From the sequence record PQ510734.1: 64,000 nucleotides of DNA; one strand, 5' to 3'. The number at the start of each line of letters is the position of its first letter. The first letter of the stretch is position 1. A program made the translations under genes and the position numbers. This DNA comes from Escherichia phage A6-6. Under the pieces are notes generated by a model, which saw only the letters and a list, made by a program, of their open reading frames with translations, was not told the origin of the DNA and ran no database searches. This document shows positions 58,027 to 58,836 of this stretch, in pieces.

Positions 58027-58360
58027 AATTTTGGTTTTATGTATAGGATTAATTTCATTTTCTGCGTTAGCAGATACATCATATACTGAAATTAGAGAGT
58101 ATGTAAACCGTACTGCTGCGGATTATTGCGGGAAAAATAAAGCATGCCAAGCTGAATTTGCGCAGAAATTAATATATGCATATAAAGACGGAGAAAGAGA
58201 TAAATCAAGCAGATACAAAAATGATACATTGTTAAAACGATATGCTAAAAAGTGGAATACCTTAGAATGTTCAGTTGCGGAGGAGAAAGATAAAGCCGCT
58301 TGTCATTCAATGGTTGACCGTTTGGTAGATTCTTATAATCGAGGATTGAGTACTAGATGA
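58019..58360 (+). CDS. small secreted / periplasmic protein
   Basis: 113 aa with N-terminal signal peptide and four Cys. Confidence 0.55.
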   Translation: MTKILVLCIGLISFSALADTSYTEIREYVNRTAADYCGKNKACQAEFAQKLIYAYKDGERDKSSRYKNDTLLKRYAKKWNTLECSVAEEKDKAACHSMVDRLVDSYNRGLSTR

Positions 58361-58836
58361 TTGTAAAATATATCAAGGGCGATATTGTCGCCCTATTTCT
58401 TCAAGGTAATATTATTGCGCACGGGTGCAATTGCTTTCACACAATGGGCTCTGGTGTAGCAGGTCAATTAGCAAGAGCCTATCCCAAAATTTTAGAAATA
58501 GATAAAACCACTACCGAGTACGGTTCTCGTGATAAATTAGGCGATATGTCTATTGTTTTTAAACATAGTCCTACAGGATTTGGTATATGCTATAACCTGT
58601 ATACGCAATACGAACCGGGTCCTAATCTTGATTATGGTGCTTTAGTAAACTGCATGATAGAATTAAATCTACAGGCAGAAACCCTTTTGTTTAAACCAGT
58701 AATTTACATTCCACGCATAGGTTGCGGTATTGCTGGTGGTGATTGGGATAAGGTTTCTAAATTAATCGACATGTTTACTCCTGATATTGATTTAATAGTG
58801 GTAGATTATGAAAGTACATTACCCGCATCCGTTTGA
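58357..58836 (+). CDS. macro-domain protein (ADP-ribose binding / hydrolase fold)
   Basis: KGDIVALFLQGNIIAHGCNCFHTMGSGVAGQLARAYP parallels the macro signature DITxxxxDAIVNAAN-x6-GGGVxGAIxxAAG; later IPRIGCGIAGGDW parallels ISTGIYGYP. Confidence 0.6.
   Translation: MIVKYIKGDIVALFLQGNIIAHGCNCFHTMGSGVAGQLARAYPKILEIDKTTTEYGSRDKLGDMSIVFKHSPTGFGICYNLYTQYEPGPNLDYGALVNCMIELNLQAETLLFKPVIYIPRIGCGIAGGDWDKVSKLIDMFTPDIDLIVVDYESTLPASV

Follow-up and report, generated by a model that had tools for sequence, protein, structure and literature searches.

A macro-domain gene at the tk.4 position of a T4-like phage, and its probable role in removing DarT2-made ADP-ribose from DNA

The gene at positions 58357 to 58836 of the window, by which we mean the whole 64,000-nucleotide stretch of Escherichia phage A6-6 DNA (PQ510734.1) that was analysed, encodes a genuine macro-domain protein and is the counterpart of T4 tk.4, recently named adfM. 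We judge it rather likely that the product is the T4-like AdfM, a free-standing ADP-ribosyl glycohydrolase of the ALC1/TARG1-like class that acts on DarT2-modified thymine in DNA. The gene and the first role proposed for it are already known under the names tk.4 and adfM. What goes beyond the preprint that described them is a glutamine in place of the catalytic lysine, and the divergence of this allele, which is 58% identical to that of T4.

The open reading frame has exactly the coordinates, strand and length of 159 amino acids that were given in the initial annotation, an earlier reading of the same DNA. The following features define the gene and its expression signals.

58357-58836, plus strand: tk.4/adfM coding sequence, with ATG at 58357 and TGA ending at 58836, 159 amino acids plus stop (from the list of open reading frames and the sequence)
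58341-58345, plus strand: Shine-Dalgarno sequence GAGGA, 11 nucleotides 5' of the tk.4 ATG (read from the sequence)
56956-56984, plus strand: sigma-70-like promoter sequence ahead of regB, TTTACT and TATAAT separated by 17 nucleotides, with an upstream TG (from a consensus scan)

The ATG of tk.4 overlaps the stop codon of vs (ATGA, 58357-58360), which suggests that translation of the two genes is coupled, and the last 29 nucleotides of tk.4 overlap the tk.3 ORF, which starts at 58808. Tight packing of this kind, with overlaps at both ends, is typical of early gene clusters in T4. A shorter form of 130 amino acids is annotated in some GenBank records. However, residues G8, H22, G23, N25 and C26 lie upstream of the start of this shorter form and are invariant wherever a homologue has a residue at the position (118 to 119 of 121), and the 159-amino-acid start is therefore correct. 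The sequence at 56956-56984 may serve as an early promoter of the co-directional run regB-vs.1-vs-tk.4, a candidate role that we assign from its sequence and location; the consensus scan for promoters and terminators gave site counts no higher than the shuffled expectation, and was uninformative as a whole.

The source phage is a Tequatrovirus (T4-like), and 755 phage records match positions 57000-60200, at up to 99% identity. According to Pfam matches and the T4 reference annotation, the gene order is regB-vs.1-vs-tk.4-tk.3-small ORFs-tk-rI.1-rI, as in T4. Because the macro-domain gene sits between vs and tk.3, it occupies the T4 tk.4 position, and its product aligns with T4 Tk.4 over 155 amino acids without gaps (58% identity, E=1e-70). 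The two proteins are alike in position, in length class (155 amino acids in T4 and 159 here) and in the invariant residues, including Gln84 and Asn25, but differ in overall sequence and in the second glycine-rich loop, which reads GAGIGKGNW in T4 and GCGIAGGDW here. The T4 reference genome labels tk.4 'A1pp phosphatase motif', a comparative paper of 2006 reported an A1pp domain in tk.4 orthologues, and some GenBank records name the present allele 'macro domain protein'. In the same cluster, vs.1 (57481-58026) encodes a protein of 181 amino acids that begins like a signal peptide and contains an SLT lytic transglycosylase domain (23.4 bits, compared with a cut-off of 21.3), and is mislabelled 'RegB domain-containing protein' in one GenBank record.

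Earlier work had found that T4 without adfA and adfN is still resistant to DarTG2, from which a further factor such as AdfM is predicted. When T4 transposon insertions were screened on a host that expresses DarTG2, only tk.4 stood out significantly (by depletion), and a clean T4 tk.4 knockout is DarTG2-sensitive (bioRxiv 10.1101/2025.11.20.689424). The gene was named adfM, for anti-DarT factor macrodomain, and the authors of this preprint of November 2025 propose that AdfM strips ADP-ribose from DNA enzymatically. The DarTG2 evidence for T4 tk.4 is thus genetic and comes from a preprint. The removal of ADP-ribose marks laid down by DarT-type toxins, which the initial annotation had put first among its proposals, agrees with this report on the T4 positional orthologue, both in the screen and in the sensitised knockout. 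Its accompanying remark that no function had been described is out of date, since tk.4/adfM was reported in 2025 and an A1pp or macro annotation has existed since at least 2006; with the function of the T4 orthologue published, the proposal was right but already described. We infer that the present allele, at 58% identity, shares the activity and target of T4 Tk.4.

Assignment to the macro-domain family is supported by profiles and by the predicted fold. The Pfam Macro model (PF01661) matches the product with 32 bits (gathering cut-off 22, E=1.3e-7) over profile positions 2-117 of 118. A family profile built from 51 sequences and searched against PDB sequences ranks BT1257 (2.7e-20) above TARG1 (5e-17), SCO6735 (3e-16), Poa1p (4.5e-15) and DarG (1.7e-11). 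The AlphaFold2 model has a pLDDT of 94.4 and a pTM of 0.89, and a Foldseek search of the PDB with this model retrieves TARG1, BT1257, Poa1p and DarG at probability 1.00, with TM values of about 0.7 to 0.84. The best 50 PDB matches are all macro domains or designed enzymes on a macro-fold scaffold, each at probability 1.00. The protein is accordingly assigned the three-layer alpha/beta/alpha macro fold, and consists of this single domain, without any extra one. The macro-domain call of the initial annotation, for which structure prediction had been suggested as a check, is therefore upheld by the Pfam score, the family profile, the model and its structural matches alike.

The sequence motifs on which that call had been based are also all present, namely G8-D9-I10, the 'NAAN-like' strand H22-G-C-N25-C26, and the loops G31-S-G-V-A-G36 and G122-C-G-I-A-G-G128. 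Both glycine-rich ADP-ribose-binding loops and the conserved asparagine (N25-x6-S-G-V and G122-C-G-I-A-G-G128) are found family-wide. Conservation was counted in 121 family members and in 80 cellular homologues.

58378-58386, plus strand: G8-D9-I10 motif at the end of strand 1; G8 is present in 118 of 121 members, with D or N at position 9
58420-58434, plus strand: H22-G23-C24-N25-C26 strand; H22 and N25 are present in all 119 homologues that have a residue there
58447-58464, plus strand: diphosphate-binding loop 1, G31-S-G-V-A-G36, with the pattern N-x6-[GS]-G-V; G33 and A35 are present in 121 of 121
58606-58608, plus strand: codon for Gln84, which aligns with TARG1 Lys84, DarG Lys80 and the essential Gln85 of SCO6735
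58711-58746, plus strand: loop 2, P119-R-I-G-C-G-I-A-G-G-D-W130, a near-match to SCO6735 PRIGCGLAGGTW

The column that holds the catalytic lysine in TARG1 (Lys84), DarG (Lys80, in PTKK) and PhiKZ gp104 (in PTKD) is occupied by glutamine in the tk.4 product and in T4 Tk.4 (YTQY and YTQF, respectively), according to profile and multiple alignments. This Gln84 is invariant in all 121 family members and in each of the 80 cellular homologues, and Asn25 is conserved in the same way wherever a residue is present. Residue N25 aligns with Asn27 of SCO6735, which positions the catalytic-site glutamine, while the backbone of G23 corresponds to that of SCO6735 Val25, G124 to Gly128, and A126 occupies the position of TARG1 Asp125. 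Loop 2 of the tk.4 product, PRIGCGIAGGDW, is nearly the same as PRIGCGLAGGTW of SCO6735. Residues Q84, N25 and G124 are the retained equivalents of SCO6735 Gln85, Asn27 and Gly128.

SCO6735 of Streptomyces coelicolor and BT1257 of Bacteroides belong to a lysine-less, ALC1-like subclass of free-standing single domains, and carry the glutamine (in the motif IGQHG) and the Asn27 equivalent as the tk.4 product does. They also share with it the loop PRIGCG(L/I)AGG-W, but are cellular rather than phage proteins, and are about 26 to 27% identical to it. On thymidine in single-stranded DNA, SCO6735 removes DarT-made ADP-ribose more quickly than DarG or TARG1 do, and it relieves DarT toxicity; its activity is abolished by Q85A, almost abolished by N27S and impaired by G128E (PMC9411070). 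A trait ascribed to the SCO6735 subclass is a mobile loop about 5 residues longer than that of DarG and TARG1, and Lys89 in SCO6735 aids activity on DNA (PMC9411070). In our alignments this insertion, of 5 to 6 residues in BT1257 and SCO6735, is absent from the tk.4 product, which has a short loop like those of DarG and TARG1; 64 of the 80 cellular homologues have 3 extra residues at the site. Because the Gln-type site is kept but the long mobile loop is missing, the tk.4 product is better described as SCO6735-like in its working than as a full member of the subclass.

Most likely, the tk.4 product is an enzyme that takes ADP-ribose off thymine in phage DNA, and the chemistry is probably of the lysine-independent SCO6735 type. 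The gene would be expressed early, together with regB, vs.1 and vs, and the enzyme would bind the ADP-ribose that the host DarT2 toxin places on thymine N3 in single-stranded phage DNA. In the proposed site, Gln84 held by Asn25 would position the distal ribose, and a backbone-bound water would attack, as described for SCO6735. Hydrolysis of the bond between ribose and base would restore replicable DNA and release free ADP-ribose. Two further genes of the window relate to ADP-ribose or to nucleotide signalling. One is nudE (52936-53391, 95% identical to T4), by annotation a Nudix hydrolase that acts on ADP-ribose, and NudE could dispose of the ADP-ribose that AdfM releases. Gene 57B (45983-46438) is 99% identical to its T4 counterpart, and 57B is named the anti-CBASS gene acb1 in the HIDEN-SEQ preprint.

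In fold and class, the tk.4 product agrees with the macrodomain of DarG, known from the DarTG2 systems of M. tuberculosis and T. aquaticus, and the two presumably share a substrate, ADP-ribose on thymine N3. Three features of DarG, namely the catalytic Lys80, a C-terminal domain that binds DarT and a darT gene next to it, are absent from the tk.4 locus. Membership in the DarG family itself (NCBIfam NF048014) was rejected, given a score of 27.7 bits as against an equivalog cut-off of 250, a match confined to the macro half of the model (positions 2-142 of 338), Gln84 in place of Lys80, no C-terminal DarT-binding domain, and vs and tk.3 as neighbours. DarG was nevertheless the only family hit in NCBIfam and the only match in the defence library of PADLOC, there a weak one. 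Cellular homologues of the tk.4 product, at no more than about 44% identity, are found in Rhodobacteraceae, Desulfobacter, Verrucomicrobia and other groups, mostly as stand-alone genes of about 150 amino acids, and the homologue in Pelagimonas is surrounded by housekeeping-type genes. When the ORFs within 2.5 kb of 80 such homologues were clustered, no conserved partner such as DarT was found beside them; the sole large neighbour cluster consists of antisense ORFs that overlap the macro-domain gene itself, and other clusters reach at most 11 of the 80 loci. The single domain, and the lack of a conserved DarT neighbour in the cellular homologues, argue for a free-standing eraser rather than a fragment of DarG.

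A phage macrodomain of the same name, PhiKZ gp104, protects against DarTG2 by clearing ADP-ribose from DNA. It removes the ADP-ribose added by DarT2 from DNA in vitro (Cell Rep 2026, PMC13309987), and is the only phage AdfM whose biochemistry has been demonstrated, albeit in a different, Lys-type subfamily. Unlike the tk.4 product, gp104 is a Lys-type relative of DarG (9e-25 to M. tuberculosis DarG, with the motif PTKDNW), and BLASTP aligns the two phage proteins over 23 residues only (E=0.001). Since the PhiKZ protein is Lys-type and the T4-type protein is Gln-type, the name AdfM spans two macrodomain subfamilies, and these are probably independent acquisitions. Human TARG1 (OARD1), which also reverses ADP-ribosylation of thymine in DNA, is the best structural match to the tk.4 product (Foldseek E=5.5e-10, TM 0.73 to 0.84), but its Lys84/Asp125 dyad is replaced by Gln84/Ala126, and identity is about 20%.

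The tk.4 allele stands out from its surroundings. The products of regB, vs.1, vs, tk, rI.1, rI and rI.-1 are 97 to 100% identical to those of T4, as against 58% for tk.4, 91% for tk.3 and 52% for tk.2, with no match for tk.1. At the DNA level, tk.4 matches T4 perfectly over its first 38 nucleotides and at about 50% over the remainder of the gene, with a return to 93 to 97% identity inside tk.3. From this pattern, the allele looks like a cassette that was swapped by recombination in a hyperplastic region. In the 5' end of the gene, the codons for KGDIVAL contain a palindrome (AGGGCGA-TATTG-TCGCCCT, 58376-58394) with a run rich in T after it, which the scan marked as resembling a terminator on either strand. 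T4 has the identical palindrome, at the end of the 38 nucleotides shared without mismatch and directly ahead of the point where the two alleles part; it may be there by chance, form an RNA structure or mark a recombination junction.

Between tk.3 and tk, an interval at 59016-59580 is not homologous to T4, and T4 tk.1 is absent. The interval contains the following ORFs.

58996/59017-59223: Phage_zn_bind ORF
59220-59396: ORF of 58 amino acids
59393-59578: tk.2-like ORF, 52% identical to T4 tk.2

Together, tk.4 and this interval form a local hypervariable island, the flanks of which are mostly DNA 93 to 100% identical to T4. Other differences from T4 lie elsewhere in the window, where T4 denV, ipI, ipII and ipIII have no tblastn match at any position. 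In their places stand three ORFs, two of them in the region 53922-54848, that begin with N-termini of the internal-protein type.

48873-49346: internal-protein-type N-terminus MKSYAQFLNE
54011-54328: internal-protein-type N-terminus MKTYKEFIAE, in the region 53922-54848
54345-54818: internal-protein-type N-terminus MKTYQEFITE, in the region 53922-54848

These findings suggest that the phage has a different set of internal proteins, and denV is apparently missing at its T4 position. A partial match to T4 segB, at 39883-40134 on the minus strand (54% identity over 84 amino acids), lies away from the tRNA region where segB resides in T4, and may be a homing endonuclease remnant or relative.

The present tk.4 allele, at 90% identity or more, occurs in 312 phage records; with homologues of every degree included, the number is 2,789 of 50,697. 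Its divergence from T4, when most neighbours are 97 to 100% identical, raises the question of whether it has lost or altered the activity against DarT2, and serves only as an ADP-ribose reader or acts on another base adduct; within the class, ALC1 is such a reader without catalytic activity, and it too has glutamine in the position 84 column. However, every family-invariant residue is retained in this allele, the frequency noted above makes it a common one, and its loop 2 is closer to the family consensus (GCGIAGGDW) than T4's own, such that there is no sign of decay. We therefore regard such a loss or change as very unlikely. Hardly any weight falls on a role in binding or breaking down immune signals derived from ADP-ribose, such as the gcADPR or His-ADPR of Thoeris; the degradation of such signals was the second proposal of the initial annotation. 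Macro domains in general bind ADP-ribose derivatives, but none of our results supports this activity, the published screen ties tk.4 to DarTG2, and the closest characterised relatives are all glycohydrolases that act on ADP-ribose linked to macromolecules.

The labels 'phosphatase' of PHROG 335 and 'A1pp phosphatase motif' of the T4 record would fit an enzyme that acts on small metabolites and not on DNA, either a Poa1p-like ADP-ribose-1''-phosphate phosphatase or an O-acetyl-ADP-ribose deacetylase. Yeast Poa1p is indeed a good match (1.6e-9 by sequence, 4.5e-15 with the family profile and 3e-9 with Foldseek), by sequence alone about as good as SCO6735. Its positions His23, Ser30 and Phe152, mutated in PDB entries 6lfs, 6lft and 6lfu, align with His22, Thr29 and Ala126 of the tk.4 product, so that the histidine mutated in 6lfs is shared, but alanine stands where Poa1p has Phe152. 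The phosphatase annotation is domain-based naming only, and the specific DarTG2 phenotype of the T4 orthologue speaks against a small-metabolite substrate. To our knowledge, Appr-1''-p also has no source in phage-infected E. coli; for tRNA repair, T4 relies on Pnk and Rnl, not on Tpt1. The label 'RNase III inhibitor', or deacetylase of the YmdB/MacroD type, was rejected on a score of 15.7 bits against the NCBIfam cut-off of 291 for the YmdB-type model. In sum, we consider a small-metabolite enzyme improbable. There is slightly more to be said for a main substrate that is another ADP-ribosylated macromolecule, such as Asp/Glu-linked protein or uracil-linked RNA, with DarTG2 protection as a side activity. 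SCO6735 also cleaves protein-linked ADP-ribose and U-ADPr on RNA, TARG1 is the best structural match, and ADP-ribosylated protein could come from host ADP-ribosyltransferases or from those of the phage, as T4-like phages carry their own, Alt, ModA and ModB. However, these three enzymes modify arginine, a linkage that macro domains are not known to us to cleave, both catalytic residues of TARG1 are replaced in the tk.4 product, and the sole recorded phenotype of the T4 orthologue is against DarTG2. Such a main substrate is thus unlikely, while a thymine-ADP-ribose eraser may secondarily cleave ADP-ribose on protein or RNA as well.

A more speculative extension of the preferred reading, the removal of ADP-ribose from thymine in DNA, is that the Tk.4 family, including this allele, represents a third kind of thymine-ADP-ribose eraser, defined by a Gln-type site and a minimal loop and acquired independently of the Lys-type AdfM of jumbo phages. 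Replacement of the cassette would then reflect differences in substrate range, for example towards uracil-ADPr RNA or other DarT-like adducts. We offer this extension tentatively, as an idea with a modest chance of being right.

Approximately 2,800 phage records with a homologue currently carry the mixed labels 'phosphatase', 'RNase III inhibitor' and 'hypothetical protein'. At least for the syntenic tk.4 orthologues of T4-like phages, anti-DarTG2 ADP-ribosyl glycohydrolase (AdfM) is probably a better label, and the practical value of the tk.4 result lies in annotation. The distinction between Gln-type and Lys-type mechanisms is a point of some scientific weight, as assumptions about inhibitors and mechanism that are based on DarG may not transfer to the T4-type AdfM, whose Gln-type site is without the catalytic lysine.
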